This document shows positions 36,813 to 59,567 of a stretch of DNA of 64,000 nt, piece after piece (within the stretch, counting starts at the first letter, position 1; the number at the start of each line of letters is the position of its first letter). This DNA is from a virus. The position numbers were made by a program, and so were the translations under genes. The notes below the pieces were generated by a model that searched no databases, was not told the origin of the DNA, and worked only from the letters and a program-made list of their open reading frames with translations. The stretch is from the IMG/VR virus record IMGVR_UViG_3300037067_017075, positions 3,916 to 67,915 of that record. One strand, 5' to 3'.

Positions 36813-36886
36813 GTATTCATCGGGGCCCCCGCTCGGCCTGCCGAGTGGGGTGATGCCCCCGTAGGGGCTCCATTCATGGTGCCCGC
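36813..36886. repeat. Composite repeat: partial family C element (minus, 36813-36856) abutting a family B GTAG palindrome (plus, 36858-36886)
   Basis: CATC-A-CCCCACTC...GAGCGGGGG-CCCC-GATG; CCCGTAG-GGGCTCCAT TC ATGGTGCCC. Confidence 0.75.
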
Positions 36887-37106
36887 ATAAAGGAGTTGGT
36901 TCTATGGGTAACATCATTCCGATTTCACGGAAATCAGGGTCGCCCACCATGGGAGACCTCATCGCCGGGCTCTATTCCGACTGCGGGATCCCAATGAGTG
37001 CGGACGACCGCCGGCGCATCGACAGAGCCCTGACCGACATCGAGAACGAGACCGACATCGTTCCCCTCCCGGCCAACATCGCCGTACTGGGGATGAGGAG
37101 GGACTG

Positions 37107-37550
37107 ATGCGCGGATACTTCGAGATCGGCATCTATCATACTAAAACAGAGATCAACGTCGGTACTCTCTGGCGCTCTGCCTATCAACTCGGAGCAGCGG
37201 GCATCTTCACAATCGGTAGACGCTACAAGAGGCAGGCGGGGGATACCGTCAAGGCATGGCGCCATATTCCGTTGCGACATTACGTCGATTTTGAGGACTT
37301 CAATACACATCGGCCCCAGGACGCGGTTCTCATTGGGGTTGAAATGGGCGGTGATCTTCTCCATACCTGTGCTCACCCGGATCGGGCTATCTATCTGATG
37401 GGCGCTGAGGATTCAGGTCTGCCACAGCAAATTTTAGATCGATGCAACCGAGTCATAGCGGTAGAAACTTCCGGCGTGGAATCATACAACGTCGCGGTTG
37501 CCGGAAGTATTGTGATGTATCATCGGTTTATAACGAGGACTTGTTTATGA
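37107..37550 (+). CDS. SpoU/TrmH-family RNA 2'-O-methyltransferase (SPOUT)
   Basis: NVGTLWRSA..LG, LMGAEDSGL, SYNVAVAGSIVMY. Confidence 0.92.
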   Translation: MRGYFEIGIYHTKTEINVGTLWRSAYQLGAAGIFTIGRRYKRQAGDTVKAWRHIPLRHYVDFEDFNTHRPQDAVLIGVEMGGDLLHTCAHPDRAIYLMGAEDSGLPQQILDRCNRVIAVETSGVESYNVAVAGSIVMYHRFITRTCL

Positions 37551-38383
37551 ACACATTCTGGATCATCGTCGGGATCGCCATGATCGTCGTCCTGGGCGCC
37601 GTACTGGTCCTCATGGGCCTCGGGTATATTATCACCGAGGACCTGGCGGGAGCCGGCGAGCTGGAGGAAGGGGATGGATAAAGAACAATGCAGAGAATGC
37701 CTCGGAGAAGACTATTCCTGCCCGGTGAGACAGGCAGTTGACGCATCCAGAACATTCGGCTGCGCATGTGGAGAAGATGCTGCCGAAGAAGTGGCGGCCT
37801 ATCTCGTCGATAGACGAGGGTGTGCTATGAAAAGCGCATTAATCGAGCAGGGTATCATCCGGGGCGAGCCGCTGAACCCTGAACTGCCACCCCTGCCTCC
37901 CGGAGGACTGAAAGATTATTGGAAGGTGCGGCTCGGAATGACGGAGGAAAAGCATGGATCAGATTGATATGCCTAAGAATCACACTGATCATTGTATGGT
38001 AGTTGGGTGTAATAATCCAGTTACCTATCGGGGCACTATGTTCCCAAATTCTTGTTCTGAACACGCGTTGTGGTGTTTTTTTCCCGGATGCTTTAAAAAC
38101 GCAATTATAGAAAAGCGTGGAGTTGCTCTATGTAACGTGCATAAAAAACTAAATCTCAGAAAGCGCAATTCATATATTTGTGCACACACAGGATGTTATG
38201 AGACCGCAAGCCGGTATATCAAATTTTATGGTTATATGGCCATTACGCTTGTAAAAGCCTATTGTGATACGCATCTGCCGGGAGGCATAGAACAACAACG
38301 GCGCAATTCACCAAAAGAAATATCGTTCAAGCAATATTTATTGGCGATGGGAATAAACCGTTGCGCCGAACAGGAGAATGCTC

Positions 38384-38803
38384 ATGAGCCTCAATAAAGT
38401 AATGCTGATCGGCCGGCTCGGCGCCGATCCCGAGGTCAGGTATCTTGACCACGGCGATGCCGTCGCCACGTTCTCGATCGCCACGTCCGAAAAATGGACG
38501 GACAAGAACTCCGGGAAGAAAGAAGAGCGCACCGAATGGCACCGGTGCGTGGCGTGGCGGCGGCTGGGCGAGGTCTGCGGCGAATATCTTTCCAAGGGCA
38601 AGCAGGTCTATGTGGAGGGGAAGCTCCAGACCAGGGAATGGACCGACCGGGACGGCGTAAAGCGCTCCACCACGGAGGTCGTCCTTTCCAACATGGTCAT
38701 GCTTGGATCCGCCGGCAACCGGCCCCAGGGGCCCGGAGAGGCCGATGCGCCGCCGCACAGCAAGGGCACGTCCGCGCCGGATGAGGATGATATACCATTT
38801 TAG
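38384..38803 (+). CDS. ssb: Single-stranded DNA-binding protein
   Basis: SLNKVMLIGRLGADPE, ERTEWHR, VEGKLQTR, C-terminal DDIPF. Confidence 0.97.
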   Translation: MSLNKVMLIGRLGADPEVRYLDHGDAVATFSIATSEKWTDKNSGKKEERTEWHRCVAWRRLGEVCGEYLSKGKQVYVEGKLQTREWTDRDGVKRSTTEVVLSNMVMLGSAGNRPQGPGEADAPPHSKGTSAPDEDDIPF

Positions 38804-38873
38804 GATTCCGATCAAAGTGGGCTTTGATCGGGTGAACACGTGGCCACCTCACGCTGCGCGTGAGACTCTGGCC
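38801..38873 (+). repeat. Family C two-hairpin element starting at the ssb TAG
   Basis: TAG GATT CCGATCAAAG TGGG CTTTGATCGG GTGAA CACGT GGCC A CCTCACGC TGC GCGTGAG ACTCT GGCC. Confidence 0.85.
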
Positions 38874-39853: not shown

Positions 39854-40600
39854 ATGAATCGAACGAAGATAGAGTGGGTTCGTAACCCCGACGGGACCGC
39901 CGGCTACACCTGGAATCCAGTTACCGGCTGCCGTCATAACTGCTCCTACTGCTACGCCCGCCGGATGTGCGTGCGGTTTGCCGGGAAGTGGGGCCTCGAC
40001 CCGGCCGACCCATTCAGGCCGACGTTTCACCCGGAACGGTTGAATGAAGTAGATCATCTCAAGGGGAAGAAACAAATATTTGTTGGATCGATGTGCGATC
40101 TTTTCGGTGATTGGGTTCCGAAAGAATGGATACAGGACGTCATCGATAAAGCGAGATTCCAAGACGAGCATTATGCACACTACGTTGTCGATAGAGACGG
40201 TCGGGTAAAACAATCCTGTCCCAGGACCTTCATCTTCCTAACCAAGAACCCCCGGCGATATGCCGAGTTCGACTTCCCGCCGAACTGCTGGCTCGGGGTG
40301 ACGGTGACGGGGCAGATCGATTACCAGAAATACCTCGGACTCAGAAGGCAGGATTCTAAAAATATCAAGTTCATGTCCTACGAACCGATCCTCGGGTCAT
40401 TTGATTTCTTTGACTTCGCCTTTCCCGACTGGCTCATCCTCGGCGCCATGACTGGGCCGGGGGCAAAGAAGTACGCACCCGACCCCCGGTGGATAGCCGA
40501 TGCCGTGGCGCAATGCCGGGCGCGGGGGATCCCGGTGTTTATGAAGAACTCCATCCGTCCCTACTGGACGGGGGAGATGATACGGGGGTGGCCGAGATGA
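39854..40600 (+). CDS. DUF5131 (Gp37Gp68, radical-SAM-like) protein
   Basis: TKIEW, TWNPVTGC...CSYCYA, IFVGSMCDLF, LTKNP, SYEPIL, IPVFMK. Confidence 0.9.
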   Translation: MNRTKIEWVRNPDGTAGYTWNPVTGCRHNCSYCYARRMCVRFAGKWGLDPADPFRPTFHPERLNEVDHLKGKKQIFVGSMCDLFGDWVPKEWIQDVIDKARFQDEHYAHYVVDRDGRVKQSCPRTFIFLTKNPRRYAEFDFPPNCWLGVTVTGQIDYQKYLGLRRQDSKNIKFMSYEPILGSFDFFDFAFPDWLILGAMTGPGAKKYAPDPRWIADAVAQCRARGIPVFMKNSIRPYWTGEMIRGWPR

Positions 40601-40814
40601 CTTATGCTATCAAAGACAGTGCCGGCAACAGAGTGATTGTTGTCGAAAAGATGCCGCGTAGACGCTGCGAGCTTTGTGGAAAAACGGCCGAGTTGCGTCC
40701 TTACGGCCCCAACGGTGAAAATATTTGTTTCGCTTGCGGCATGAAGGATGAAGAGACAACGGCTAAACAGTTCGGCAAGATCATTTTGGGAGAAAATCTG
40801 GATTCGTAATCTAT

Positions 40815-40961
40815 GGCTGGGCCTCGGCGGAGGGGGGAAGGGCAGTACTGGAATGTGCCCATAGTCCGTACTGTCTGTGATTAACACGGTAGCGATTATA
40901 TGGGATCGCGACCCCGACATGTCTCGGCCCTGTGGGATGATAAGCCGCTCCCACCCCAGCC
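40815..40961 (+). ncRNA. Candidate structured intergenic RNA
   Basis: GGCTGGG/CCCAGCC closing stem enclosing several hairpins. Confidence 0.4.
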
Positions 40962-41177
40962 TAACAAATAAGTAGAGGATGACGATGAGACGTATCTGTA
41001 AGAAATGTGGGTGTGCAGATTTCAATGTTCTCATTACTGGCCCAGAATCGCACCATCTGGGATTGTTCGGCTTGAGGAACTTTTCAGGGATAGAACTTTA
41101 TTGCGTTAAGTGCGGAGAAGTCGAATCATTCTCCATAGAATATTTAGGCGAGTATACAAAGGACGAAGTAACCGAAT

Positions 41178-41265
41178 AGGGTGTGGGAACTGGCGTGAGA
41201 TGTGGTGCGAAAAGGACAGCTCTCATGCGGTGTAAACTGTTGGCGAGCGTACCAGCCCACACCCT
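41178..41265 (+). ncRNA. Candidate tRNA-like structured RNA
   Basis: 10 bp closing stem AGGGTGTGGG/CCCACACCCT with a stacked 5 bp arm. Confidence 0.45.
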
Positions 41266-42022
41266 TTAAAGGAGAGAGATTATGAGGCCCAACGAATTTA
41301 CACGTGGCTTTGATGCTGGCCTGGCAGCGAGCCGGGCCAATACAAAAGAAATCCTTGACGAAAAAGACAGAACAATCTCCGACCTCCGATCCCGCCTTGC
41401 CGCCGAGACCAAACGAGCAGACGAGGCAGAGGTGTAAAGGGATTTTGCTAACGCACTGCTTAAAGAACTCGGATGGGAAATACCATGTAACGGAGGGAGT
41501 GATGGATAGACCGTTTGACTTAGACCTGGAAGATAAACTATTTAACTGTGAAATGGCGATTGAATACGCCGTTGCCAATCACGGTGTAGACCCATATAAA
41601 TTCCGCACTCAGCTAAAAGAGATATTTGACGACCTCCGCACCGCCCGCGCCGAACTCGCCTCCGCCAAGAAGGTGATAGGGGAGATACGGGAATCGGCGC
41701 ATGGAATGTTGCAGTCTAAAACCGTGGGTGAATTGCACGATCATGCCGAAGCAATTATCAAGGTCATAAAGGAGAAATGAGAAGATGAATTCTTTTCAAT
41801 GGTGGTGGTGCAGGACTATAGCGTGGCGAGTAGCCGATTGGCGACGAAAGGGGTTGAGGTTTATCGAGGACTGGTTTTGGGGAATCCTGTTTATTGCCGT
41901 TGTGATTTTGTTCTTGTTGCCGCTCGCGGCAGCGTGCCATTGTCTCGAAAACGGTCATTTTGAAGCATTCCCCCTTGCGTTTTAGGACAACCGCACCCCC
42001 CTACTAACAAGGAGTGAGAATG

Positions 42023-44177
42023 ATGGACTTAGATAAAATATATAGCCTATTCGACGATGCCGTAAAAAATAATAACGACAAAATAGTGCTGTCTATTCCC
42101 CTGGCGGTGGAGTTTAGAGACGTGCTCAGAAATGCACTGGTGGAGCGTAACACCACAAATTCAACAAAACACCACCTACTCGATGAGGCAATATCCCGCA
42201 TTACCGAACTCGAACGGGAGCGGGATGAAGCGGTGAAACAAGCGAATGAAAATTATCACGCCTACGAGATCATGCGCGACGGTTGCAAGATGCACGAAGA
42301 ACTGGCCGACTCGTGGAAGGAGAAGGCAGAGAAGGCGGAGGGTGCGCTTGTCGAGAGTTTCCGGGACGGCTACGACGCGGGTTATAAATACGCGAAAAGC
42401 GCGGCTGGCAGTAGAGGAGGCCCATATGTTGAACGATAAAGACCTACGGGCGGTAGCGGAGTTCGCGGGGATAGACCTCGACACGATCAAACTCCCCCAG
42501 TACGTTAATGATACGCGGTCAGATATGAAACTAAAATTACAGACCGACTCCGGCATGGCCGCGATACTGAGGACACTGTTGGCGAAGCCCTCCGTGATGC
42601 CTACGGGGAGTCTGGACAGGATACGAGAATTGATAACCTTGCCCGATGGTGTAGAGTGGGCTCCCGGTCCTGAATACGTGCGTAAACAGATACAGTCAAT
42701 TATTGACGAGGGATAACATGGACATAGATAAGAGAGTAGCAGAGTGGCTTGGCTTTATAGTGACGAAGGACGCGTTAGAGCATAACCAATACGAATGGTT
42801 TTGTGACAACAAAGCTTACGGGATGTGGAAAGAGTTTATCGATTGGCTCTTTTCCGACGAAGGCTCTATGGCCATACTGAGGGCATTCCACAAGGCGGGG
42901 TACAGAGTTGTTCACGAGACAATACTTACCTCTACATTTGTCCACACGGAACGCTACGTGGGTAATGCGCATTATGAACAAGGGGTAAAGGCACGTGCCG
43001 GTTCTTTAAACGCTGCCATCCGTGAAGCGGCGAGGAGATACGTAAAGGAGAAGCCATGATAGAAGAAATAAGAAAGAGGAATGAGGAGCACAAGACCCTA
43101 CACGACAAGCTTGTGTCCGCAATGGGTATAAACTACGATTACCCACAACTCGTCATCGATATCGACGTCCTCCTCGCTATCATCGATAGGGTGCGGGAGG
43201 AGTTGCCCGTAGAGAAGATGTGCGACTTCTGCGGGGTATCAACGATCGGGGGGAATCCGCACGACATCCTCGACGACATCAGGGCCATCCTCAACGAGGA
43301 GGACACAAAATGACACCGGAAGAACTGATAAAGGTTTTTCGGAACAATTCTAAGGAAAGTAGCTCCGAATACTCAACATTGTTATGGAATGATCGAGCGG
43401 AATGTATCACGGCTCTCCTTAATCGCGCCACCCGTGCCGAGAAAGCGTTAGGGGAGATACGAACGGTATCACACATAGACCCATACACCATTTCCAACTT
43501 CAAGGACACGGTGTATGGGGTAAACGGCATCCTTGACGACTATTACGGAGGCCAATGATGACCGAAGATGAATTAAGGGCCGTTGAAGAAAGGCGTCAAG
43601 ATGCACTATTTCTATGCTCTGAATATGGTGTATCGCAATTACTCAAAACCGACATCCCCGCCCTCCTCGCAGAGGTGCGGAGGTTGCGGGAGATATGTGA
43701 GCGATGGGAGAACCTATCCCCTGTATGGAGGAAAGAATGAACACCATCTTTACCAAAGAGTATCTACCGGGGACGGTTTGACCCGATGAAGATGGTCTAC
43801 GTCCATTTCGGAAACTTTGGGCCTCCTATACTCGACGAACGGATACTCAGGCCGATTGCAGAGGTAACGAAGGAATTCAGCGAACGGATTAAACCGGTAT
43901 TCGAGTCTCTGGGAGACGGCAATGTAACGGTTAGTGTCGTTGTGACAGAAGTCGAAAAAACATGACCGAACACATGGCCTACATAGCCGTTAAATCCTGC
44001 GGGTGCGTCGTGGGGGCCGTTGTGGATATTCCGGAATGTCGGAAAGAGACGGCCAAGGACGTCGCCGAATGGATACGTAACGGCCTGACGATAGAACGAG
44101 TCCCATCGGCGGAAGTCAAGACGCTCTTAAAGGCGTGCCACTGTGATGAAAAACAGATTTCCATGGGGTTGAAATGA
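42023..44177 (+). CDS. Run of small hypothetical (ead/nin-like) genes
   Basis: Coupled short ORFs with a recurrent DIPALLAEVRRLR / DIDVLLAIIDRVR motif. Confidence 0.55.
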
Positions 44178-44731
44178 TCTACGAAAAAATTCTCGAATAT
44201 CTCAAGGAATGCGAAGACCAGGGAAAAGAACCGGTCCTTTCGCCACATGGGCAACTCGGTTTAATGCGGGCATTCCGGTTTCTTTTTTGTCAGTATAAGC
44301 GGCTCAAGGGTCTCCAACTCGAGCGCGATCAATGGCGCGCCGGCATTCACAAGCGGTGCAATCGGGAACATTATGAATGGCGATTACGCAAGAAGGTCCC
44401 CATCGTTTGCGTCTGCGGCTCAACAAAGTTCAAACCGGAATGGGAAAAGGCGGTCCTCGAGGAGACACTGGCCGGCCGGGTGGTGTTATCGGTCGGCGGG
44501 TTCGACCATCATGACCACCTTGGCATCACAGAGGACCAAAAAGAGGCCCTTGACGTCCTCCACAAGCACAAAATAGACATCGCCAACGAAATCCTCGTGA
44601 TAAACAAAGACAACTACATAGGGAAATCAACGCTCTCGGAGATCCGTTACGCCCAGGCTAAGGGCAAAGGGATACGATTCTACTTTCCGCTCTCAAAGGA
44701 TTGGAGCGAAACGTTGGGGATTCCAGTATGA
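44174..44731 (+). CDS. Protein with a C-terminal nucleoside-deoxyribosyltransferase-like (flavodoxin) domain
   Basis: IVCVCGSTKF, LH.HKIDIANEILVIN..YIG.ST.SEI.YA...GK. Confidence 0.65.
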   Translation: MIYEKILEYLKECEDQGKEPVLSPHGQLGLMRAFRFLFCQYKRLKGLQLERDQWRAGIHKRCNREHYEWRLRKKVPIVCVCGSTKFKPEWEKAVLEETLAGRVVLSVGGFDHHDHLGITEDQKEALDVLHKHKIDIANEILVINKDNYIGKSTLSEIRYAQAKGKGIRFYFPLSKDWSETLGIPV

Positions 44732-45354
44732 CCGTCAGAGAACTTGCCAAAAGTTGCGTCGGGGCAATTTTCCGCAACCCGCCGCGGGCCCCGGACCCGG
44801 ATTTGACCGGCTATGACCCGTCCTGGGAGGCCCGGAGCGTCAAGGAGCTGCTGTTTGTGGTCAACTGTATGCTGTTGCCGCACCAGCGGTTCCCGTCGTA
44901 CGACGACCTGATCCACAAAATCAAGGGGACGCGGCAGGCCACCGACGAGCAGGCCGCCGCCGCCACCGCCGTGCTGCGCCGGCGCGCGGGCGCCATGTAC
45001 GACCTCACGAACGCCCTGAGCGCCATGCACCGCCGGTGGATCGTCGAAGTGGCCGAAAACACGCGGCTGGAGCGGATCCTGTCGTCCAGGGGCTGGCTGA
45101 TCCACCGAAACTTCTGGTGGGCCGCGGCTCTGATCGCCGTGACCGTCTGGGTCGGTCTGGTGGGGCGGCCCACCTTAATGATCGTGGCCAAGGACGTCCG
45201 GTACGACGCCATAGTGGAGCGGATAGCCAACGTTTATGCCGAAAACGCCCGGCTGCGGGTAGAAAACCGGGTGCTCCAGCAATACCTCCAGGACGCAACG
45301 GCCGAGAACGAAGAGATCAAGGGGCTGTTGAAAAAATACGTGGGGGAGGAGTAG
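44728..45354 (+). CDS. Hypothetical protein with a TM segment and coiled coil
   Basis: FWWAAALIAVTVWVGLVG followed by heptad repeats. Confidence 0.55.
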   Translation: MTVRELAKSCVGAIFRNPPRAPDPDLTGYDPSWEARSVKELLFVVNCMLLPHQRFPSYDDLIHKIKGTRQATDEQAAAATAVLRRRAGAMYDLTNALSAMHRRWIVEVAENTRLERILSSRGWLIHRNFWWAAALIAVTVWVGLVGRPTLMIVAKDVRYDAIVERIANVYAENARLRVENRVLQQYLQDATAENEEIKGLLKKYVGEE

Positions 45355-45425
45355 AACCTTTCGCGCAAATCGGGGGCGCGAGTGAGCGACAGGCCACCCC
45401 GTTCGGGACGAACGAGGCCCCGGCC
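45352..45425 (+). repeat. Family C two-hairpin element starting at a TAG
   Basis: TAG AACCTT TCGCGC...GCGCGA GTGAG CGACA GGCC A CC CCGTTCG GGA CGAACG AGG CCCC GGCC. Confidence 0.8.
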
Positions 45426-51196: not shown

Positions 51197-51509
51197 CCTT
51201 ATACATTAACTCGGTCGTGTCAAGTATATAATCGCCTAATTTATGCACAATCCATTAATCCCCGGTAGTTTTGACCCGACCCGTGATATTGCCGCGATAG
51301 AACGCGCATATGATTTTTACAGGAAAATACAGAACGACAGACGGCTTGCGGAGAGAGCAGACCGGCAGGATGCAGCGATAGCAGCATTGGTCACGGCAGT
51401 GCAGGATCTGCACCGACTCATTGTGTTGCATCTTGCCGATGTTCCCATGAGCGATATTACGAAAGCACAATACAAAAAGTTGGCAAAAGAATTACAAGAG
51501 AGGTGATCC

Positions 51510-52097
51510 ATGGATCTCTTTGAAACCGAATACGCCAAAGCCTGTGCGCAGGAGTCCGACATCAACGAGCACTTGCCCTACCTCCACGGGCTGGCCATCA
51601 ACCGCCTGCATGTGACGGAGTTCGGCGTCCGACAGGGGACGAGCACCCGGGCTTTCATGGCGGCCCGTCCGAAGCGATTGGTTTCCTACGACCTGGTGTT
51701 GGACCCGGTTGTGGGTGCGTTGTTCGAGCGGGCGGTGCTGGAGGGTCACAACTACGCCTACCGCCAGGCCAACGTCCTGGATATCGAAATCGAAGAAACC
51801 GATATCCTGTTCATCGACACGTTCCACACCGGTCGGCAGGTGACCGCGGAGCTGGCTCGGCACGGTGGTAAGGTGCGGGACTATATCATTTTCCACGACG
51901 TGGAGACGTTCGGGTGGGTCGGGGAGGACGGGTCGGAAGGGATACTGCGGCCAATTATTGCCTTCATGGCCGCCGACCACGATTGGACGGTCTTCCACTA
52001 CGACCGGGCCAACAACGGGCTGTTGACGATCGCCCGGGGGGCGTCGACGGCGTTGATGAAAAGAGATACATCGACGCGCAGCCAAATATCTAAATAA
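51510..52097 (+). CDS. Class I SAM methyltransferase (Methyltransf_24-like)
   Basis: SDINEHL, TEFGVRQGTST, DILFIDTFH, YIIFHD. Confidence 0.85.
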   Translation: MDLFETEYAKACAQESDINEHLPYLHGLAINRLHVTEFGVRQGTSTRAFMAARPKRLVSYDLVLDPVVGALFERAVLEGHNYAYRQANVLDIEIEETDILFIDTFHTGRQVTAELARHGGKVRDYIIFHDVETFGWVGEDGSEGILRPIIAFMAADHDWTVFHYDRANNGLLTIARGASTALMKRDTSTRSQISK

Positions 52098-52115
52098 CAT
52101 CACATAGGTATGCCC

Positions 52116-52709
52116 TCAAGCATCCATCGACGGCAGATCTGCCTTCCGCTGGCCCTGCCCTATCCAGTACGTCCCGTCGCCCGTCCGGTGGGGTGTCACC
52201 CGCAGCTCGTCGAACAACGGCCCATACCGCTCCATGACCTGCCCGATATCGGTGAAGTGCCGCACGTGCGACGCGCAGTCAAAATTCGGCACGTCGAACA
52301 CCACGAACGTGCCGGGCACGATGTGGCCGAAGACCGCCAGGTCGTTCTCGAGGTGTTCCAGCACCTCCATGGCCACCACGACATCCGCACGGCCCAGCGC
52401 ATCTTCCGTAAACTCGGAAAATATATCGGCGCAGAAAAACAGGCATTCCGGAGCGTAGAGCGCCGCCTGGTCGATGAGCCGGTCGGCAAAGTCGATGCCG
52501 AGGTAGCCGGTCCACCCCCGGTCGGCCAGCACCCGGGCCAGCCGCCCCGTCCCGCAGCCCAGCTCCACGATCAACCGGCCGTCCGGCTCTCCGAGGCTGT
52601 CCGCCACGGCGGCGTACAACGTCCGCCAGGGGGAGGTCTCCAGCGGCCGGGATATCAGGTCGTGGTTGGCAGGGTCGTTGTAGTAGTCGACACCTTTCAA
52701 TTCACCCAT
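52116..52709 (-). CDS. Class I SAM methyltransferase
   Basis: IVELGCGTG, YLGIDF, EVLEHL; start MGELKG at 52709. Confidence 0.85.
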   Translation of the reverse strand: MGELKGVDYYNDPANHDLISRPLETSPWRTLYAAVADSLGEPDGRLIVELGCGTGRLARVLADRGWTGYLGIDFADRLIDQAALYAPECLFFCADIFSEFTEDALGRADVVVAMEVLEHLENDLAVFGHIVPGTFVVFDVPNFDCASHVRHFTDIGQVMERYGPLFDELRVTPHRTGDGTYWIGQGQRKADLPSMDA

Positions 52710-53365
52710 CAGCGTCTCCTTGCGGGCACGCCCATGACCCGCTGTCCCGGTCCCACGTTGCGGGTTACCACCGCGTTTGCGCCGACGACCGCGCCGCGGG
52801 CGATCCTCACCCCGGGGTGGATCCGGGCCCCGTGGCCGATGCGGACGCCTTGTTCGACCGTCGCCCCGACGTAGTTGTCCTTCGGCCTGTCGGACCGGCC
52901 CATGTCGTTGTCGTTGCAGAAGCTCACCATCATGCCGATAAAGCAGCTGTCGCCCACCACCATGCGGCCGGTCATGTGGGCGTTGTCCATGATCCGGACG
53001 CGGTCGCCGATCCGGGTGTTTCGGTTGACGGTCACCCCCTGGGCGATCAGGCAGTCCCGCCCGATCGTCACGTCCTCCCGCACGCAGGCGGTGTCGCAGA
53101 CCATCGTGTTTTCGCCGATATGGCTGCCGGTATAAAGCACCGCGCCGGCTCCGATGATGCACCCGTCCTCGATAATCAGCGGGCCGTATTCCCAATAGTT
53201 CGTCAAGTGAGCGGCTCCGGAGCTCATCGGCGGTCGGCCCAACACGGCAAACGGCATAACGGTGACGCCGCGGCCGATGACTACGTTCGGATAGACCACG
53301 CAGATCTGCCGGCATCGAATCAGCCCGCGCACAAGACATAAAAGATTGTTAATTAACGCACCCAC
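52709..53365 (-). CDS. Hexapeptide-repeat acetyltransferase (sugar N-acetyltransferase-like)
   Basis: Left-handed beta-helix repeats, FCND, VGANAVVTRNV...GVPAR. Confidence 0.85.
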   Translation of the reverse strand: MGALINNLLCLVRGLIRCRQICVVYPNVVIGRGVTVMPFAVLGRPPMSSGAAHLTNYWEYGPLIIEDGCIIGAGAVLYTGSHIGENTMVCDTACVREDVTIGRDCLIAQGVTVNRNTRIGDRVRIMDNAHMTGRMVVGDSCFIGMMVSFCNDNDMGRSDRPKDNYVGATVEQGVRIGHGARIHPGVRIARGAVVGANAVVTRNVGPGQRVMGVPARRR

Positions 53366-53375
53366 CGCTTACCTC

Positions 53376-54137
53376 TCAAATGCCAGGATAGATGTCGCTA
53401 AACCTAAACAGTCCACTCTCCGGAGCGATGAAGTTATACGGCTTTGTCAAATCTATATGCCCGTAGTGCGTGTGCCAGCCGCGTTTGATTTCTTCGGGGT
53501 TGTAGCGGGCTCGCCGCTCACAGATCTTTCGCTCACCCTGCTGCTGGCTCCGCAGCGGCCAGTGCTTGTAGATGAATGGCGTGGGATATACCCTCATGCT
53601 TGGGATCGTTACCCGGTGGGCCGCGGTCGTCGCAATGTCGATGCTGACGCCCCTCGGCTGTATGAATATCCGGTGCACCGGGTGCCCGTAGTGGGCCACG
53701 CCGTGGGTGAAGAACGTCTCCGGGTCCATCCCGCGGCAAAACCCGTCTACCGTCGGCACAAAGTTGAATACCGCCGTGTCGATGAAGTTGTAGCCCTCCG
53801 CCCTGACGCGCCAGAGCGCATCCACCAGCCGAACTCCGGGCCACGGGCTGCACAGCAGGTCGTCGGACCCGGTGGGGATTATCCACCAATCAGGATGATT
53901 TAGTGCTATCGCCTCGATGCGGCGGAGCTGACCGGCAAAGTCCCATTTTTCTCCCGGCATTGCTGGCCACCGCTCGAGTGCAACGCCATCCTTAAACGCC
54001 CCAAGAGCCTCCCAGGTGCCGTCGGTGGACCAATCGTCGAGGACGTGGACATTAACTCCCCCCGCCAGCCACTTTTTTACCGTCTGTTCTATAATGTCAA
54101 TCTCGTCGCGCACAATCAGGCAGGCCAACATCTTCAT
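53376..54137 (-). CDS. Glycosyltransferase family 2 (GT-A)
   Basis: VRDEIDII, VLDDWSTDGT, WII...SDD, H..LRS. Confidence 0.85.
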   Translation of the reverse strand: MKMLACLIVRDEIDIIEQTVKKWLAGGVNVHVLDDWSTDGTWEALGAFKDGVALERWPAMPGEKWDFAGQLRRIEAIALNHPDWWIIPTGSDDLLCSPWPGVRLVDALWRVRAEGYNFIDTAVFNFVPTVDGFCRGMDPETFFTHGVAHYGHPVHRIFIQPRGVSIDIATTAAHRVTIPSMRVYPTPFIYKHWPLRSQQQGERKICERRARYNPEEIKRGWHTHYGHIDLTKPYNFIAPESGLFRFSDIYPGI

Positions 54138-54979
54138 CTGACCTCCTTTGCCGGGTTTCCGGCTACCGTTTTTCCGTCCGGAACGTCTTTCAGTACCACC
54201 GCCCCCATGCCGATAGTCACGTTGTCTCCGATGGTGATGTTGTCCTTGATCATCGCTCCGATGCCTATCCAGCAGCCTCGGCCGATATGTGCGCTCCCGC
54301 CGACCACCGTATGGGCGATGAGTATGGTGTTATCCCCAATAACCGCATTGTGCGCCACGTGGACGTGATGGTCTATTTTGACGCCGTTTCCGATGATAGT
54401 GTCGGACAGCACCCCGCGGTCGATATTGGCAAACGGATAGATATCCACGTCGTTGCCGATGACAACGCCGCCGAGGTGCGGGAAGTGGGCCCACCGGCCG
54501 TCGGGGTCGCGGACATAGTTGAACCCGGGCTGGCCGATTGAGACGTGGTTATGGATGGTTACGTTTTTGCCGATAGTGGCGATCGAAGCGACCACGGAAT
54601 AAAACCCGATGGATACCGTCTGTTTTGGCGATGGAACGCCCGGTACGTTGAATATAGGAAACGGGCAATCGACCATGTTTTCGTCGTAGTCTGGCGCGAA
54701 GAACTCGCGGAGAACGCGGACGAAAGACAACTTCGGGTCGGCGCAGAGGACCATCGACGGTCCCGCTGTACCCTCGGCTACTTCCAGGATGTCATGCGCG
54801 ACAACGGCGCCGGCCTTTGTGGCCAGCACACGGGAGAGGTCGATAAGGTTCTTGCCCGAGCAAAACGAGAGATCGGCCGGCCCCGAGCCGTCCAGCGGCC
54901 CGATGCCGGTTATCTCCACGTCCGGTCCGACGAGCCGGTGGCCCGGGCCGAGGAACGCGACGATGTCTGATAACTTCAT
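54134..54979 (-). CDS. LpxD-like acyltransferase
   Basis: LSFC...DP.LSF N-terminal domain, PGFNY, PHLGGVVIG, IDRG.LSDT, KID..VHVAHN, AGNPAK. Confidence 0.88.
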   Translation of the reverse strand: MKLSDIVAFLGPGHRLVGPDVEITGIGPLDGSGPADLSFCSGKNLIDLSRVLATKAGAVVAHDILEVAEGTAGPSMVLCADPKLSFVRVLREFFAPDYDENMVDCPFPIFNVPGVPSPKQTVSIGFYSVVASIATIGKNVTIHNHVSIGQPGFNYVRDPDGRWAHFPHLGGVVIGNDVDIYPFANIDRGVLSDTIIGNGVKIDHHVHVAHNAVIGDNTILIAHTVVGGSAHIGRGCWIGIGAMIKDNITIGDNVTIGMGAVVLKDVPDGKTVAGNPAKEVR

Positions 54980-54980
54980 T

Positions 54981-55376
54981 CTATTTCCTATTCTCAAAAT
55001 ATACGGCCCCGCCGCCGCCAAGGATTCCGCCCACCAGCATTCCCCAGCCGAACCAGGTCATCTTCTTCCAGAACGTCATCGGCGGGTGCTTGGCAAGGTA
55101 GTCGAGGGCCTTCGGAATCACCTTTTCCTCGTAGGCTCTCACCCGGATCGAGTCGTTGAGGGCCTTATCGCCGTACGGCCGCTTGACGATGTAGGTGTCG
55201 TCTGCGGCGTTGTAACGCACGGCATCAGGATCGGCCGGCTCGGCCGACAACTCCTTGATGACCTCGTCAACCTGGTCCTCGGTGATGGTGAAAGACAGGG
55301 TGGCGCAGCCCATCGGGCCGATCAGCCAGAAGCAGATCAGCGCGACGGCTATCCAGGCGCGGATGTTTTGTTTCAT
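54981..55376 (-). CDS. Lipoprotein-like lysis accessory (spanin-like)
   Basis: Signal peptide ending PMGC and a C-terminal hydrophobic segment; within the lysis cluster. Confidence 0.5.
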   Translation of the reverse strand: MKQNIRAWIAVALICFWLIGPMGCATLSFTITEDQVDEVIKELSAEPADPDAVRYNAADDTYIVKRPYGDKALNDSIRVRAYEEKVIPKALDYLAKHPPMTFWKKMTWFGWGMLVGGILGGGGAVYFENRK

Positions 55377-55642
55377 CACGGCCTCCACGCGTTGGACATC
55401 ACGGCGGTCCGCTGATCGGTCGTGAGCTCGGCGATCTTCGGCCCGATGTATTCCTTTTCCATCACCACCCTGCCGGTGGAAAAATCCTGGTTGTACTTGG
55501 CCGATGCCGCGCGGCCCGCCGCCGCGTTGAACCGGCACGACTGCACCATTCCGAAAACGACCGCAACGGCCAGCAGCGCCGCCAGCGCGACGATAATCCA
55601 GCGCTCAAGCGTCAGCTTCGCAATGAGTGTTTTTACGTCCAT
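55376..55642 (-). CDS. Membrane-anchored lysis accessory (i-spanin-like)
   Basis: N-terminal TM; coupled to neighbouring genes. Confidence 0.45.
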   Translation of the reverse strand: MDVKTLIAKLTLERWIIVALAALLAVAVVFGMVQSCRFNAAAGRAASAKYNQDFSTGRVVMEKEYIGPKIAELTTDQRTAVMSNAWRP

Positions 55643-55643
55643 C

Positions 55644-55910
55644 CTATCCTCCGTTCGACGGCTTGCCGCCGTTCCTGCCCCGTAGGTAGTCGAGGGCCAC
55701 GTTTGCGCCCATGTACGCGCACAACAGCAACAGGTAGTTGAGGGAGATCTCCCCCTTCCAGACGTAGACCCCGCTGCCGATGATCAGGGCGATGAACTTG
55801 CGCCCGCCGATCCCCTGCCAGAGCTTGATATACCAGGGCTGGCAGGCGGTTAATAGCGCCACGGGCGCCTGTGTCGTGTCGACACGGATTCTATCCGGTT
55901 TTTCAGCCAT
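55644..55910 (-). CDS. Holin (putative)
   Basis: GRKFIA, two TM segments, YMGANV motif; downstream of the endolysin. Confidence 0.65.
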   Translation of the reverse strand: MAEKPDRIRVDTTQAPVALLTACQPWYIKLWQGIGGRKFIALIIGSGVYVWKGEISLNYLLLLCAYMGANVALDYLRGRNGGKPSNGG

Positions 55911-56024
55911 ATTTGACCTCGTCATAGCCTCCAGGAGCGGTCATGTGTGCGCTCCCCTGCCCCTGCTATTGGTTTATGCCGTCCGGCCCGCTCTGGCCCG
56001 CACCGGCGGTGTTCGGGCGGTTTT

Positions 56025-56513
56025 TTACCACTCTCCAGCCACGATCCAGTGCTTGACCATGTCAGGATGGTTCTTGTACGGATGACGGAAGGCGAAGTCG
56101 AGATGGACCCACTTCGAGTACTGCATCCATCCGATCCGAATGTTCGGGTAGATCTTCCGGATCTCGTTGCGCATCCCCCGGGGAGAGGCAAAATACCCAA
56201 CGATCGATATATCGACCGCGTAGCTCCTGCGGTCGTTGCCGATCTGCGCGAGCAGCGTCGGGACGTGCGGCGATGCTTCTGCCCCCCCCTCCGCCCGGTT
56301 GTGACGCTGACAGCGGACCCCGCTGGTGATCAGCAGCGGCCGGCCACCAAAATGTGCGCGGAGATACTCCACGACGTCCAGGATGTCCGGGTCGATGACC
56401 GCGAGCACCTGCTCCAGGGTCTTGTATGGACAGTCGGAATAGCGGCAGCGGCACGCAACCTCGTAGAGGTAGATGTGCGGCCACCTTTTTGCATCGAGAA
56501 GATCGTTGCTCAT
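56025..56513 (-). CDS. Endolysin, peptidase M15A
   Basis: EVACRC, ITSGVRC..HN...GG...SPH, AVDI, WVHLD. Confidence 0.9.
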   Translation of the reverse strand: MSNDLLDAKRWPHIYLYEVACRCRYSDCPYKTLEQVLAVIDPDILDVVEYLRAHFGGRPLLITSGVRCQRHNRAEGGAEASPHVPTLLAQIGNDRRSYAVDISIVGYFASPRGMRNEIRKIYPNIRIGWMQYSKWVHLDFAFRHPYKNHPDMVKHWIVAGEW

Positions 56514-56800
56514 CCAAGATACCTCCCTAAGATAAAACCGACTCCGGTACAGACGGCGCTCGTCGCTCCCATATATACCCATATCCGGTCCTTGAGCGCA
56601 AACAGCGACGTAAACCGCTTCTCGTTGAACTCACAGACCTTCGAGCATTGTCCTTCCGATGCGCTCACCCGTATCTCGAGCGCCCGCATCCCGCCGTTGA
56701 TCCGCTGGACTCCGGCTTTTGTTTCCGTAATATCGGAGGCCATGTTCTTGATCTCGTTGAGCACCACCGCAAGCGTCACTTCTTCCTTTTTTGCCGCCAT
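56510..56800 (-). CDS. Coiled-coil protein with a C-terminal TM (holin/antiholin-like)
   Basis: Heptad repeats followed by a hydrophobic tail; ATGA-coupled to the endolysin. Confidence 0.55.
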   Translation of the reverse strand: MAAKKEEVTLAVVLNEIKNMASDITETKAGVQRINGGMRALEIRVSASEGQCSKVCEFNEKRFTSLFALKDRIWVYMGATSAVCTGVGFILGRYLG

Positions 56801-56824
56801 CCCATACCCTCCGATATCGTTACA

Positions 56825-56900
56825 AGCCAGCCCCGCGCTACTGCGTGGGGGTGGCCCGTGTTCACCCAATTGAAGCCTGCTTCAATCGGAAGTGTTCCTA
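56825..56900 (-). repeat. Family C two-hairpin element starting at a TAG
   Basis: TAG GAACACTT CCGATTGAAG CAGG CTTCAATTGG GTGAA CACG GGCC A CCCCCACGCAG TAGCGCGGGG CT GGCT. Confidence 0.85.
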
Positions 56901-57547
56901 CCCGTAAAACACCGTCGGCTCCACCCACTTGCGCCCCGACCGCCCGACTATCTCCAGCGTCCCGCGCCGGGTCCGCCGCACCAGCGCCACCACCGTGCCC
57001 TCATATATCGGGTCGGACGACGAGCCGGCAAGGTTGACCGTCAACCCGCTTTCCAGCAGCACGGCGTAGGTCCCGTCCTCGTTGACGGCCGTGACCTTGC
57101 CGACCGGATCCCGCGGGTAGTCCTCCTGCCGGACGATTTTTCTGACTGTGCGGATTCCTATCGGCACCGCTTTTCTCCAAAAAATAAAGGCCGCCGCGTT
57201 CGCCGCCCTATCGAACGGCTTCGATCAAAGAGTTATTCGAACCTGCGGCACGTCTCGAGCGTCATTCTGGTCAGCATCGAATCCGGCAGCACCACGTGCG
57301 TCAGCGACCGGCAGACCGCCGAACAGCAGATCCCCACCCGCGGGTTGTCCAGCTCGTGGACGTCGCCCTCGGCATAGGAAAAATCTATCGGAACCGTCAG
57401 CGACCTGACCTTCCTGAACAGCCACTGCGGGTAGAGCTCCGCCAGTCCCCGGCGGTGGGCGATCGCCGCCGAAAGGATCAGCGGGTCGGAAACCGCCCGC
57501 ATCGTCCTTGTCCCGTCTCCGAGCGTTACCCTCTCCGATATGGCCAT
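56898..57547 (-). CDS. Two small tail-associated genes (56898-57167 OB-fold-like; 57233-57547)
   Basis: GKVTAVNEDGTYAV OB-like pattern; located in the tail module. Confidence 0.5.
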
Positions 57548-57556
57548 GCATTCCCC

Positions 57557-59320
57557 CTACTCATAGATCGGGCGCCAGTGGATCTCGAACTCATACTCAA
57601 TGGTTTTATAGACTTTGCGGGTCGGGTCTCCGGTCCTGTCTATGGTTCCATCGTCTATTGTGAAGCTCTTGGTCTGAGGGACGGGCCAGCCACCGGCAAA
57701 CGACACCGTGACCGAATGAGACCCCGGACGTCCGCGGACATACCGGGCCCGTGAGTCGCCGTCGATGTCTTCCACGTCCTCGTCGACAGCCGCGATGTCT
57801 CCCCACGCCGACCAGTGTATCTGTCCGTCCCACCCGCCTACCGGCACAATGCTGCCGTCAGCTTTTTTCCCGAGGACCCTGAGCGTCCCCCGCACGTACC
57901 CGTCCGCACCCCAGTAGGGAAGCTCCACCAGCTCGTAGGCTCCGTACACGATAACCAGATATTCGCCGGTAACTCCATTGACCTCGACCACGCAGTTCCG
58001 GCGGCCCACCACTTCGTACTCCACCGGCCCGCGGTGCAGATAGTTGTCCCTGATGTGCAGGTCCGGGTTGGCGTCGCTGGCAAGCGGCGGTCCCCACGAG
58101 CCCTCCCGGTGCAGCGTTTGCCAGGCGCCGTAGGTTATCGAGTGGCCCGCCGGCGTGGTGTCCGGCGATGCTGCGTCGGCCGGGGTGGACGTCGACTCTG
58201 TCTTGATGGAGGTGGTAATCTCCACCTTGCAGTTTTCCTGCCCTGCATCGCACAGGATAACCGTTTTCCCTGGGGTCTGAGACCGGAACGTGAACGCGGC
58301 GCACCCGCCTGCCCGGTACGTCACGTAGACCAGGCTAACCCTGTCCGGCAGGGAGGTGCCGAGCGTGATGGTCTTGCCGTCGAACGACCCGCCGGTATAG
58401 TAGTTTTTAAGAAAACTGGCTGTGCGGTCAATGATCACCGAAATCACCTCGGAGATGGCGTTTGCCACGCCGACGGTGATCTCGTCGCTCGACCATTGTT
58501 CCTCGGCCTCTATCGTCTCGGTGGTCGTCAGGGCGCTTCCGCTCTGGAGGCTTCCCGGTCCGGAGAAGATCTCGGCGGTTACCACCGTCCCGTCGGCCAC
58601 CGGCAGCCCGTCCGGCGTCAGCACGCAGGCCACGATCTGCGACGGCGTAATCAGGTCGATGGAGGCCGGGTCGGCCCGCGCCGTGATTGACCCTATGCCG
58701 GGATCTGCGATTATGATGATGAGCGTGGCGCTCTGGCCCATCCACGTCCCGGTGACGGTGGCGTATCCGCCTCCCTCCGCCCGGGCGGTCAGCACCGTCT
58801 CGGCGTAGTCGTAGACCACCGGGACTTCCGCCGGCGCGATGCCGGCCAGCTGGTCCACGGAAAAACCGACGGTCTCGCACCCGTCGTAGACCACGAAGTG
58901 CGGCACGCGCTCCATATCCACCGAGGTCTCAATCTCCCGCTCGCTCCAACCGGCCACCGGGATTTCGTCGCCCTGTTCGTCGCCGACCTTCACGTACACC
59001 CTGGGGGGGTTGATGATCCAGTAACTCGTGCGGATGCGCCGCTCGTCGTACGGCGTGGACGTGTCCCGCCGGGGCAGCATCCCGGCCACGTCGCCGTTGG
59101 GATACCGGCAGCGGGCGCGGATGCGGCAGTGGTCGGTGCCGTTGGAGTTGAGCCGGCCGCTCGGGTGCGTGGCGATGTCCGACTCCAGCACGATCTTCGG
59201 CCAGCCGTCGTTCAGCGCACCCGAGTCGTCATCAGTGACCAGCACGCTGTTTTCCCCGTCGGGAAGCTCGATGCTCTCCTCGAGGTCGATGATCTTGGTT
59301 TTTTCGTCCAATCTTGACAA
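57557..59320 (-). CDS. Tail/baseplate-associated protein with Ig-like (Big) segments
   Basis: ITARADPASI, PVADGTVVT, NGTDHCRIRA Big_1-like motifs. Confidence 0.6.
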   Translation of the reverse strand: MSRLDEKTKIIDLEESIELPDGENSVLVTDDDSGALNDGWPKIVLESDIATHPSGRLNSNGTDHCRIRARCRYPNGDVAGMLPRRDTSTPYDERRIRTSYWIINPPRVYVKVGDEQGDEIPVAGWSEREIETSVDMERVPHFVVYDGCETVGFSVDQLAGIAPAEVPVVYDYAETVLTARAEGGGYATVTGTWMGQSATLIIIIADPGIGSITARADPASIDLITPSQIVACVLTPDGLPVADGTVVTAEIFSGPGSLQSGSALTTTETIEAEEQWSSDEITVGVANAISEVISVIIDRTASFLKNYYTGGSFDGKTITLGTSLPDRVSLVYVTYRAGGCAAFTFRSQTPGKTVILCDAGQENCKVEITTSIKTESTSTPADAASPDTTPAGHSITYGAWQTLHREGSWGPPLASDANPDLHIRDNYLHRGPVEYEVVGRRNCVVEVNGVTGEYLVIVYGAYELVELPYWGADGYVRGTLRVLGKKADGSIVPVGGWDGQIHWSAWGDIAAVDEDVEDIDGDSRARYVRGRPGSHSVTVSFAGGWPVPQTKSFTIDDGTIDRTGDPTRKVYKTIEYEFEIHWRPIYE

Positions 59321-59382
59321 TGTCGCCTCCGGCGACGATTAGAAATTGTCATTGCCAGGACATGCGGCAACCAGCCACGCAC

Positions 59383-59567
59383 TTCACCGTCATTGCCGCA
59401 ATCCCCGGATTAACCCCGTAATCGCCTTCACCCGTAGGGGCACCATATATGGTGCCCGCCGCGGCCCCGCCGCATTGATATCTCCCTGCGTTCGCCGGGG
59501 CCCCACTCGTTAGAGTGGGGTGGCGCCTCCCTCACTCGTGCGAATCCTGATTCGCACGAAGTTCTAC
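59383..59567. repeat. Composite of family A (59383-59406, +, hairpin deleted), family B (59431-59460, +) and family C (59493-59566, -) elements
   Basis: TTCACCGTCATTGCCGCAATCCCC; CCCGTAG-GGGCACCAT AT ATGGTGCCC; TAG AACT TCGTGCGAAT CAGG ATTCGCACGA GTGAG GGAGG CGCC A CCCCACTC TAAC GAGTGGGG CCCC GGCG. Confidence 0.88.

Follow-up and report, generated by a model that had tools for sequence, protein, structure and literature searches.

Very few lineages are known to carry hairpins that are conserved in sequence and abut stop codons, as in the TRIT and REP elements. The REP/BIME elements of enterobacteria occur in hundreds of copies, form inverted doublets and come with cognate RAYT transposases, and E. 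coli REPs within ~15 nt of a stop codon reportedly have an effect on translation. The RNase III sites of phage T7 are intercistronic sense hairpins with an internal loop, and after cutting the 3' hairpin protects the upstream message. Mycobacteriophage start-associated sequences and stoperators, like the T4-type PeSL cassettes, are short boundary repeats that are oriented with transcription and present in many copies per genome. TRIT of Mycobacterium (Tuberculosis Rho-independent terminator) is a hairpin of conserved sequence that keeps to a very narrow range of positions around stop codons, with ~147 copies per genome centred around -8 and partly in coding sequence (PMC3152330). Later reports state that 3'-end mapping suggests RNase III cutting and not transcription termination (PMC13714241; bioRxiv 10.1101/2022.06.01.494293).

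We examined a phage sequence of 64,000 nt (the window) for a repeated element, family C. A first-pass annotation had treated it as a single two-hairpin element; its six copies were all located where it had placed them, and both hairpins were also found alone. Family C is therefore a composite of two separable modules, A and B, forming a sense-strand RNA spacer. The window holds four full copies (38801+, 45352+, 56900-, 59566-), one with module A only (46370+) and two with module B only (36856-, 31356+), and the modules occur both singly and in varied combinations with two other hairpin families. Module A is a 26-nt hairpin in which a YRGG tetraloop tops a stem of 11 bp; the pairs at its base are fixed as U·G, U-A, C-G and G-C, the top two pairs are A-U, and the pairs in midstem covary freely. 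Module B has 4 plus 7 to 11 bp with an asymmetric internal loop.

The 30-nt pattern of module A matched four times in the window and never in 100 shuffles. A model built on the four full phage copies only (R1) scored these at 72 to 89 bits and the 46370 copy at 40 bits, with the next match at 16 bits. RNAalifold found 23 pairs in four phage sequences, 11 of them changed on both sides. Four of the six copies folded more stably than their shuffles (z -2.75 to -4.5); the 46370 copy was borderline (z -1.46, equalled by 13 of 200 shuffles), and the 45352 copy did not exceed its shuffles (z 0.16, 118 of 200 as good). In 38 copies of module A, 6 from the phage and 32 bacterial or metagenomic, pairing held in 99.5% of 404 stem cells and 8 of the 11 pairs had changes on both sides, values reached by none of 500 shuffles, while slid registers collapsed to 19 to 53% pairing. 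The stem cells (n = 418) comprised 378 Watson-Crick pairs, 37 G·U pairs and no A·C. The closing U·G was retained in 34 of the 38 copies, and reverse-strand matches scored 19 to 23 bits against 30 to 55 bits on the forward strand. Since the conserved U·G marks the sense strand, module A acts as RNA. In the phage, all six module A copies lie in sense orientation relative to the flanking genes, in both arms. The covarying sense-strand structure that had been proposed is thus borne out, and so is its unfamiliarity: Rfam 15 gave no match at gathering score across the whole window and none at E<=1 for 10 loci with six phage and four bacterial copies. A pseudoknot in which the RGG of loop A would pair with the C-rich bulge of B was dropped because bacterial copies, which are without B, conserve the loop just as well; the bulge of the 56900 copy is only CU.

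The copy at 38801-38873 (+; R1 84.4 bits, MFE -35.4, z -3.86) lies 3' of the SSB gene, whose ORF closes with the usual acidic tail. It consists of the TAG (38801-38803), a 3-nt spacer, hairpin A (38807-38832; 11 bp, loop UGGG), a linker starting GUGAA and the bulged hairpin B (38842-38873). The first-pass annotation had seen the gene that follows as apparently 5'-truncated. Its ORF aligns to phrog_17260 from profile position 55 of 158 onward and not before, a difference that may be no more than normal variation within the family. The copy at 45352-45425 (+; R1 76.5 bits), 3' of a 217-aa ORF, has its TAG at 45352-45354, a 5-nt spacer and hairpin B at 45392-45425. Its hairpin A is weakened to 7 bp with a 9-nt loop, the 3' arm being short by 3 nt, and its TAG shares the frame of the following ORF. 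The A-only copy at 46370-46410 (+; 40.1 bits with R1, 54.7 bits with model R2) follows an M23-peptidase/endolysin-like gene; its TAG (46370-46372) and hairpin A (46376-46401) are succeeded by GUGAGCGGC, and the next ORF starts at about 46401-46422. On the minus strand, the copy at 56825-56900 (R1 72.2 bits, MFE -39.7, z -4.51) is 3' of an 89-aa ORF, with TAG 56900-56898, a 7-nt spacer, hairpin A 56890-56865 and hairpin B at about 56856-56825. The copy at 59493-59566 (-; R1 89.3 bits, z -3.09) is 3' of a 668-aa tail-like gene, with TAG 59566-59564, a 3-nt spacer, hairpin A 59560-59535 and hairpin B 59525-59493.

Module B stands alone, on the minus strand, at 36818-36855 (z -2.75), in a spacer whose flanking ORFs are on the plus strand; on its own strand another hairpin family lies upstream (36858-36886) and a terminator-like hairpin downstream (36792-36773). 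The second lone module B, at 31353-31390 (+), falls within a doubtful ORF (31255-31560) or at its end; this ORF has no PHROG match, and the lower stem of the module forms only three of four pairs. A probable decayed module A at 13435-13477 (-) scored weakly (R1 12.9 bits, E 0.23); it retains the loop CAGG and the 3' arm with GUGAAC and has lost the pairing of the 5' arm. It adjoins a copy of the start-associated leader family. A further module A was found outside the window at genome positions 3669-3708 (-). This copy begins with an out-of-frame TAA, and its upstream ORF stops at a TGA within the 5' arm.

All five window copies that have a 5' end start at an ORF-closing TAG, as the first-pass annotation had stated and as the ORF ends confirm (38378-38803, 44701-45354 and 45815-46372 on the plus strand; 56898-57167 and 59564-61570 on the minus strand). 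The spacers from stop to hairpin A are 3, 5, 3, 7 and 3 nt. With TAG making up 26 to 31% of predicted stops, its association with five of the six phage module A copies has a P of 0.005 to 0.012. Among bacterial copies the adjacent stop is TAG in 15 cases, TGA in 8 and TAA in one, and the TAA of one phage copy is not its stop. TAG is preferred and not obligatory.

The bacterial copies came from a narrow clade of uncultured Actinomycetota, in which the module A hairpin lies 1 to 6 nt past the stops of clpX, fusA, pckA, ilvE, folC and ABC-ATPase genes (upstream genes: clpX three times, PEPCK and ABC ATPase four times each, ilvE and folC twice each, EF-G, Pup ligase and others). R1, which contains phage copies only, recovered these bacterial hairpins with 33 matches at E<=0.01, the best at 36.7 bits. 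Among 41 relatives of one genome of the clade (G002), R2 had matches in 12 and the module A pattern in 19; the pattern gave 50 matches in all and its reversed control gave 1. Genomes that carry the hairpin have 1 to 11 copies. The pattern was found in only 5 of 301 genomes of a class-level sample, and none of 121 genomes sampled from the phylum had many copies. Most of the bacterial or metagenomic matches (23 of 34) lie -1 to +6 nt past the stop codon that closes an open frame of 130 codons or more; one further match (L183) adjoins the stop of a contig-limited frame, and for about 11 of the 34 no long ORF ends alongside. Orthologous sites are kept across species, and midstem changes between orthologues are compensated. 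Such conservation at orthologous housekeeping genes argues for function and not for spread.

The bacterial 3' flanks are of UU(U)C-, UG- or CU-type, and the GUGAR linker and module B are absent. Many copies face a convergent gene, and further hairpins follow, some with GCUCUUUC-type tails. The module B pattern was not enriched in the 41 bacterial genomes (27 matches, with about 50 when the control was reversed), and module B appears to be phage specific. Since hairpin A of the phage is the same as the housekeeping gene-end signal of this clade, the phage most likely borrows that signal, and the clade likely includes its hosts, an assignment made from the shared motif alone. Capture of hairpin A together with a host SSB gene was rejected, as the chromosomal SSBs of the clade are only 33 to 39% identical to that of the phage. 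A 43% SSB homologue on a small G002 contig is without hairpin A downstream.

In searches for relatives of the phage, a megablast of 12 kb against GenBank phages returned no match, the capsid protein is only 25 to 28% identical to podovirus capsids, the 668-aa protein had no match, and neither it nor the 217-aa protein had IMG/VR relatives. R1 found nothing in 145 kb from 11 loci that hold homologues of the gene following 45352, nor in 942 kb from 66 loci with SSB homologues of up to 63% identity. A strict pattern scan of IMG/VR gave no matches and a relaxed one gave six loci, none with complementary arms by eye. Of the DNA-run contigs compared with 40000-59999, X2 is near-identical, and X3 and X4 barely cover the copies.

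TRIT is the closest known analogue of hairpin A. Both are lineage-restricted Actinomycetota hairpins, conserved in sequence and structure, with a narrow position relative to the stop (3 to 7 nt in the phage; -1 to +6 for the 23 bacterial matches) and no canonical U-tract logic. TRIT is high in copy number, largely palindromic, bidirectional, spans ~50 nt and is reported only in Mycobacterium. Hairpin A, compared with it by description only, is 26 nt, strand-asymmetric, present in 1 to 11 copies, starts after the stop, belongs to a different, uncultured clade and is also phage-borne. To TRIT it adds another actinobacterial case, in which the hairpin is different, smaller and specific to one strand. 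Word searches of the literature, supplements aside, found no description of hairpin A and TRIT as the sole analogue. At the level of kind, an analogue is in print.

The other known systems are more distant. Like REP/BIME, hairpin A is an extragenic gene-end hairpin that forms mosaics with other motifs, and the REP roles include 3'-end protection and translation near stops. Membership of a REP family is contradicted by the low copy number (50 pattern matches over the 41 genomes, none of which has more than 11), the lack of a detectable Y1 transposase in the five genomes searched and the lack of inverted doublets in the module A loci read. T7 RNase III sites have an internal loop, and module B has an asymmetric one. 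The T7 sites are single, longer, irregular hairpins, with about two helical turns of duplex for the type; cleavage is only proposed here, and we know of no sequence likeness between them and family C. The mycobacteriophage and T4-type boundary repeats differ in being repressor DNA sites or promoter-plus-terminator cassettes, and none of them, to our knowledge, is a covarying hairpin common to host housekeeping genes.

Our preferred reading, to which we give somewhat less than an even chance, is that family C punctuates mRNA through host machinery, by forming or protecting 3' ends just past the stop. That a phage carries six copies argues that the signal is portable and works via the host. We infer that a host factor would read hairpin A: a nuclease or binding protein specific for dsRNA, or such a factor acting with the terminating ribosome. 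The upstream mRNA would be ended, or cut and then protected, just beyond the stop codon, as is currently proposed for TRIT, and hairpin A would thereby punctuate the polycistronic phage transcripts. If the GUGAR linker, which is conserved and single-stranded, were cut, hairpin A would cap the 3' end of the upstream cistron; the downstream cistron would then start with the phage-specific bulged hairpin B, 5 to 25 nt ahead of the next ribosome-binding site. Because GUGAR and module B are missing from the bacterial copies, the proposed cut site is unsupported beyond the six phage copies. With 11 bp, the stem is short by the standard of classical bacterial RNase III substrates. One module B copy is antisense to the neighbouring ORFs, another is perhaps inside an ORF, the 45352 hairpin A is weak and about 11 of the 34 bacterial matches have no long ORF ending beside them, all of which speak against punctuation. 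A more specific version is possible, though we hold it with more reserve: hairpin A would be a recognition element tying the end of translation to the making of mRNA 3' ends in this actinobacterial clade, through some host factor or through the terminating ribosome and a nuclease, and the phage would have copied this code, at about a hundredfold the density in the host, to cut and stabilize its own polycistronic messages.

Alternatively, hairpin A could stall or time termination, as has been reported for E. coli REPs near stops, or, once melted, free an SD-like 3' end (GRGUGA) and so couple cistrons. Its onset ~2 to 7 nt past the stop means that a terminating ribosome must hold or melt the 5' arm, and the distance is tight in phage and bacteria alike. 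In the copy outside the window, where the upstream ORF ends within the 5' arm, the next gene has the 3' flank GUGGGGUGG as its ribosome-binding site and starts with an ATG 4 nt past that flank, ~14 nt from the hairpin, and GGUGA is the likely SD of the start-associated leader family. TAG enrichment among adjacent bacterial stops (15/24 against 28/80, P 0.016 with a crude background) also fits a role in termination. However, the next start codon is 60 to 95 nt away in the four full copies, behind module B; no conserved mini-ORF was found after GUGAR in the five copies read; and the many bacterial copies with a convergent gene ahead of them leave no second cistron to couple. Programmed readthrough was excluded as a general role, since only one of the five TAGs (45352) has an open in-frame extension and the other four frames stop after 3 to 17 codons. 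We consider a translation-coupled role unlikely.

It is less likely again that hairpin A is a noncanonical terminator or attenuator at which RNA polymerase halts or pauses, so that it sets the balance between upstream and downstream transcripts. Hairpin A is stable, contains GC and lies at gene ends, often before convergent genes in bacteria, and TRIT was initially interpreted in this way. Yet a terminator scan called none of the five in-window module A copies nor any module B. No T-run follows, the phage 3' flank being GUGAR; 2 to 3 U come immediately past the stem in only ~40% of bacterial copies; and the downstream phage genes require continued transcription. For TRIT itself, an overlap of predicted TRITs with only 2 to 4% of mapped termination sites is reported in M. 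tuberculosis (bioRxiv 10.1101/2022.06.01.494293).

The first-pass annotation had also suggested a TAG-targeting miniature mobile element. On such a reading the modules would spread, or be shuffled, between gene boundaries as DNA in the manner of REP/BIME or T4 PeSL. Modules found alone or mixed with two other hairpin families, the decayed and half copies, and the GTAG at three of six phage copies are compatible with this. So, weakly, is contig X3 of a related phage, which tracks the window to 46410 (the end of module A) and continues with sequence like 59430 onward, as seen in one contig with a 30-nt side. A search for the Y1 transposase (PF01797) in phage G000 and bacterial genomes G002, G003, G006 and G016 was negative in all five, with a control that matched 6 of 14 known genomes and with MAGs that are incomplete. 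The ends of the five window copies show no terminal inverted repeats or target duplications, the copies differ by compensated changes and are not near-identical, bacteria have few copies at orthologous positions, and no other IMG/VR virus was found with the element. We regard mobility as improbable. An operator or cruciform bound by protein as DNA is the least credible reading, for while each arm is nearly palindromic in some bacterial copies (TTCGATCGAA type), like tandem operators, the loop is asymmetric, the conserved U·G is a C·A mismatch on the opposite strand, orientation strictly follows the upstream gene, and the phage arms are complementary without being palindromic. No sigma-70-type promoter is consistently placed among the window copies.

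Sharing of a hairpin between host and phage is a new type of evidence for host assignment. If the host-code reading were true, cis-RNA signals in common could assign hosts to uncultured phages. With its clear invariant and covarying positions, the 26-nt hairpin is also a compact object for finding the factor.

All six copies of the two-hairpin family C element listed in the first-pass annotation were present at their positions, comprising four full copies at 38801(+), 45352(+), 56900(-), and 59566(-), a first hairpin at 46370(+), and a second hairpin at 36856(-). As that annotation had claimed, each of the five copies with a 5' end began at a TAG closing an ORF. The genes upstream of these copies were an SSB at 38801 (phrog_44, E 1e-57), a 217-aa ORF at 45352, an M23-peptidase/endolysin-like gene at 46370, an 89-aa ORF at 56900, and a 668-aa tail-like gene at 59566. 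The SSB ends in the usual acidic tail, implying that its TAG is a true stop. At 45352, the TAG shares its frame with the next ORF, and the 31 intervening codons contain no stop (45352-45447). Readthrough there would fuse 217-aa and 130-aa proteins, and since this is true of only one of the five copies, it may be chance. A general readthrough signal was rejected because an open in-frame path onward existed at the 45352 TAG only.

The covariation reported for the element held when RNAalifold was run on the four full copies, with 23 pairs predicted and 11 of them changed on both sides. A 30-nt pattern of the first hairpin gave 4 matches versus 0 in 100 shuffles. Relative to shuffles, stability was clearly higher for four of the six folds (z -2.75 to -4.5), marginal for 46370 (z -1.46), and no higher for 45352 (z 0.16), owing to the loss of 3 nt from its first hairpin. 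The covariance model built from the four full copies (R1) scored these at 72 to 89 bits and 46370 at 40 bits, with the next match at 16 bits. No known Rfam family matched. We rejected an intrinsic terminator, having found neither a U-tract nor a terminator call at any in-window copy, and no sigma-70-type promoter was consistently placed at these copies.

The element is a composite of two modules that also occur apart. Module A consists of the first hairpin (hairpin A) and GUGAR; module B is a GC hairpin with a bulge (hairpin B), made up of a lower stem of 4 bp, an unpaired A, an upper stem that begins CC(CC), and a pyrimidine bulge on the 3' side. Module A stands alone at 46370(+) in the window and just outside it at genome positions 3669-3708(-), where it scored 35 bits. 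The latter copy begins with a TAA, but out of frame; the actual upstream ORF (172 aa) terminates at a TGA within the 5' arm, and the 3' flank serves a 969-aa gene as its ribosome-binding site. TAG was thus found at five of six phage module A copies (P 0.005-0.012, given that TAG makes up 26-31% of predicted stops). A decayed module A lies at 13435-13477(-). Module B stands alone at 36818-36855(-), in a spacer between plus-strand ORFs, and at 31353-31390(+), within a doubtful ORF or at its end.

The idea that hairpin A is unique to this phage did not survive, since it also occurs in a bacterial clade. Pattern scans of IMG/VR found no other virus with module A. In metagenome contigs, a relaxed pattern matched at least 118 stretches, and among the matches listed four had fully complementary arms, two of which (loci L143 and L183) place the hairpin 2 nt past a TAG. 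A tighter pattern against one-genome-per-species contigs gave two matches, both in MAGs (one titled Actinomycetota bacterium) and directly past the stops of folC (TAA) and ilvE (TGA). A model of module A (R2) found five copies in one of these MAGs and matches in at least 12 of 41 relatives (150 candidates scored per genome). Pattern searching gave 50 matches, spread over 19 of these 41 relatives (1 to 11 per genome), and 1 in the reversed control, some of the single matches not being hairpins. The clade is narrow: 5 of 301 genomes matched the pattern in a class-level sample, and a phylum-level sample of 121 genomes held chance-level singletons only, the motif-bearing MAG G002 excepted. The denominators 41 and 121 include unpublished-flagged genomes (G028, G039; G326, G408, G437), which no positive claim uses. 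R1, built from phage copies alone, matched bacterial hairpins 33 times at E<=0.01 (best, 36.7 bits), so the likeness is not an artifact of a model trained on both sets. Module B was not enriched in the clade.

Across 38 copies of hairpin A, 99.5% of 404 stem cells were paired and 8 of the 11 stem pairs had changed on both sides. None of 500 shuffles attained the observed pairing values, and slid registers dropped to 19-53% paired. This alignment was fitted to the model, which favors structure; an independent MAFFT alignment of 10 copies was 100% paired, with 6 of 11 pairs changed on both sides. The closing U·G was kept in 34 of 38 copies, the U-A, C-G, and G-C above it and the two A-U pairs near the top were fixed, and the loop was CAGG in 33 of 38. 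Among 418 stem cells there were 37 G·U and no A·C, and the orientation was always that of the upstream gene. Together, these two observations favor a sense-strand RNA over duplex DNA.

In bacteria, 23 of 34 bacterial or metagenomic matches lay at -1 to +6 nt from a stop codon closing an open frame of 130 codons or more. One more, L183, also adjoins a stop, its frame being limited by the contig; the remaining matches had no long ORF ending alongside. The adjoining stops were TAG (15), TGA (8), and TAA (1), compared with a crude background from the same loci of TGA (46), TAG (28), and TAA (6) (one-sided Fisher P 0.016), so TAG is preferred without being obligatory. Housekeeping genes precede the hairpin: clpX (3 genomes), ATP-dependent PEP carboxykinase and an amino-acid ABC ATPase (4 each), ilvE and folC (2 each), EF-G, Pup ligase (consistent with Actinomycetota), an SDR, a B12-binding mutase subunit, a DHODH-like gene, and an HTH-IrrE regulator. 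Hairpin A is kept at orthologous sites with mid-stem changes compensated; past clpX, the mid-stem reads GGG/CCC, CUC/GAG, or AUC/GAU. Taken together, hairpin A is a sense-strand element with protein-like sequence constraints that abuts stop codons and is common to the phage and a bacterial clade.

The bacterial hairpin heads three or four more hairpins over ~190 nt, often with a convergent gene opposite. The series of four or five is conserved, recurring at several loci and genomes (L216-L218, L224, L226, L232, L236, L238, and L242); one of its hairpins is GAGGGGGCCGG...CCCCCUC, and the series ends in ACCCCCAC. A search of L216-L218 against Rfam found no match to the series.

The closest known counterpart is TRIT in Mycobacterium, which the RNIE paper describes as a well-conserved hairpin with 147 copies and a very narrow position around -8 relative to the stop codon (PMC3152330). 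According to a Term-seq preprint, predicted terminators including TRIT overlap just 2-4% of mapped termination sites (bioRxiv 10.1101/2022.06.01.494293), and a 2026 RNA 3'-end atlas describes two peaks within TRIT and proposes RNase III cleavage (PMC13714241). As far as these descriptions go, both hairpins are lineage restricted, sequence conserved, and abut the stop codon without a U-tract; compared by description rather than sequence, they differ in size, strand symmetry, copy number, exact position, and lineage. We class hairpin A among gene-end hairpins of the TRIT/REP-like kind. What is unusual is a phage with six copies of its presumed host's signal.

We tentatively favor, at close to even confidence, a model in which a host factor reads hairpin A and the mRNA is ended or cut just past the stop codon, with the resulting end protected. 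In the phage, the cut would fall within the conserved GUGAR linker, so that hairpin A would cap the upstream cistron and hairpin B would head the downstream one, just 5' of its ribosome-binding site. A ribosome-coupled role in stalling or coupling, for which the 2- to 7-nt stop-to-hairpin spacing and the copy at genome positions 3669-3708 argue, is unlikely. Non-canonical termination or attenuation seems more doubtful again. The mosaic arrangement of the modules and one related-phage contig that leaves the window exactly at 46410 would fit a mobile or recombination cassette, which we regard as improbable. Of the two origins first proposed, an undescribed cis-acting RNA stands and a TAG-targeting mobile element does not: no Y1/RAYT transposase was found in the phage or four motif-bearing genomes (control positive in 6 of 14 known genomes). 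A DNA-level site is very improbable given the strand signature.

Two further hairpin families in the same spacers make the phage intergenic regions mosaics of modules. One lies on the minus strand just 5' of the start codons of late genes (3493-3566, 4488-4565, 13367-13440, 59373-59396 [partial], 61574-61658, and 63479-63564). It comprises GGGGAUUGCC, a variable covarying hairpin, and GCAAUGACGGUGAA, with the start codon 4 to 6 nt beyond and 17 nt from TTGCCA to CGCAAT, and resembles a leader or promoter associated with starts. In the other, CUACGGG follows a 9-bp hairpin whose arms covary; it is sense on minus, with copies at 17832-17860, 36858-36886, and 59431-59459, two of which adjoin module B. 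On the minus strand at 36773-36905, within a plus-strand ORF block, a CUACGGG hairpin is succeeded by module B and then by a terminator-like hairpin whose tail is T-rich (36792-36773); together they could represent a small transcript, antisense or non-coding. In DNA sequencing run X3, one related-phage contig tracks the window to 46410, the end of module A, and continues with sequence like that from 59430 onward, in the CUACGGG family. The observation, from one contig with 30 nt on one side, suggests that modules lie at mosaic joints between related phages.

The virus record is 67,915 bp with direct terminal repeats, and the window covers bases 3916-67915. No near relative was found among GenBank phages, the capsid protein is 25-28% identical to podovirus capsids, and no tRNA genes were found in the window. 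Genes run on the minus strand up to ~25 kb, plus from 26 to 47 kb, and minus again from 52 kb. Capture of the phage SSB from the host together with the hairpin was ruled out by comparison with clade SSBs. G002 carries a second, phage-like SSB on a small contig (L245, contig C998, 263-673), with a full-length identity of 43% to the phage SSB; it ends at TAG and is followed by a different hairpin, not hairpin A. A low-GC island (0.41-0.50) at 47300-51500 encodes a Dam-like methylase and a regulator of the HTH/M78 type (phrog_2439), and one ORF there has a weak IS1-like match; contig joints from sequencing runs X2 and X4 are numerous there, so the region is probably variable or acquired. Three tandem 81-nt repeats (74-86% alike) at 32556-32752, at and within the start of ORF 32633-33355, are a repeated protein module. 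Past the stop of ORF 28652-28891, positions 28901-28962 hold a G/C-run hairpin, then a 25-nt inverted repeat whose arms are 88% complementary and separated by 4 nt, and then TATATAAA. Finally, the divergent control region between the arms (24890-24975) has an AT-rich hairpin with module A's base and top pairs (R1, 13.9 bits, E 0.13), adjoined by repeated inverted TTGTGCAA-type words that are operator-like.
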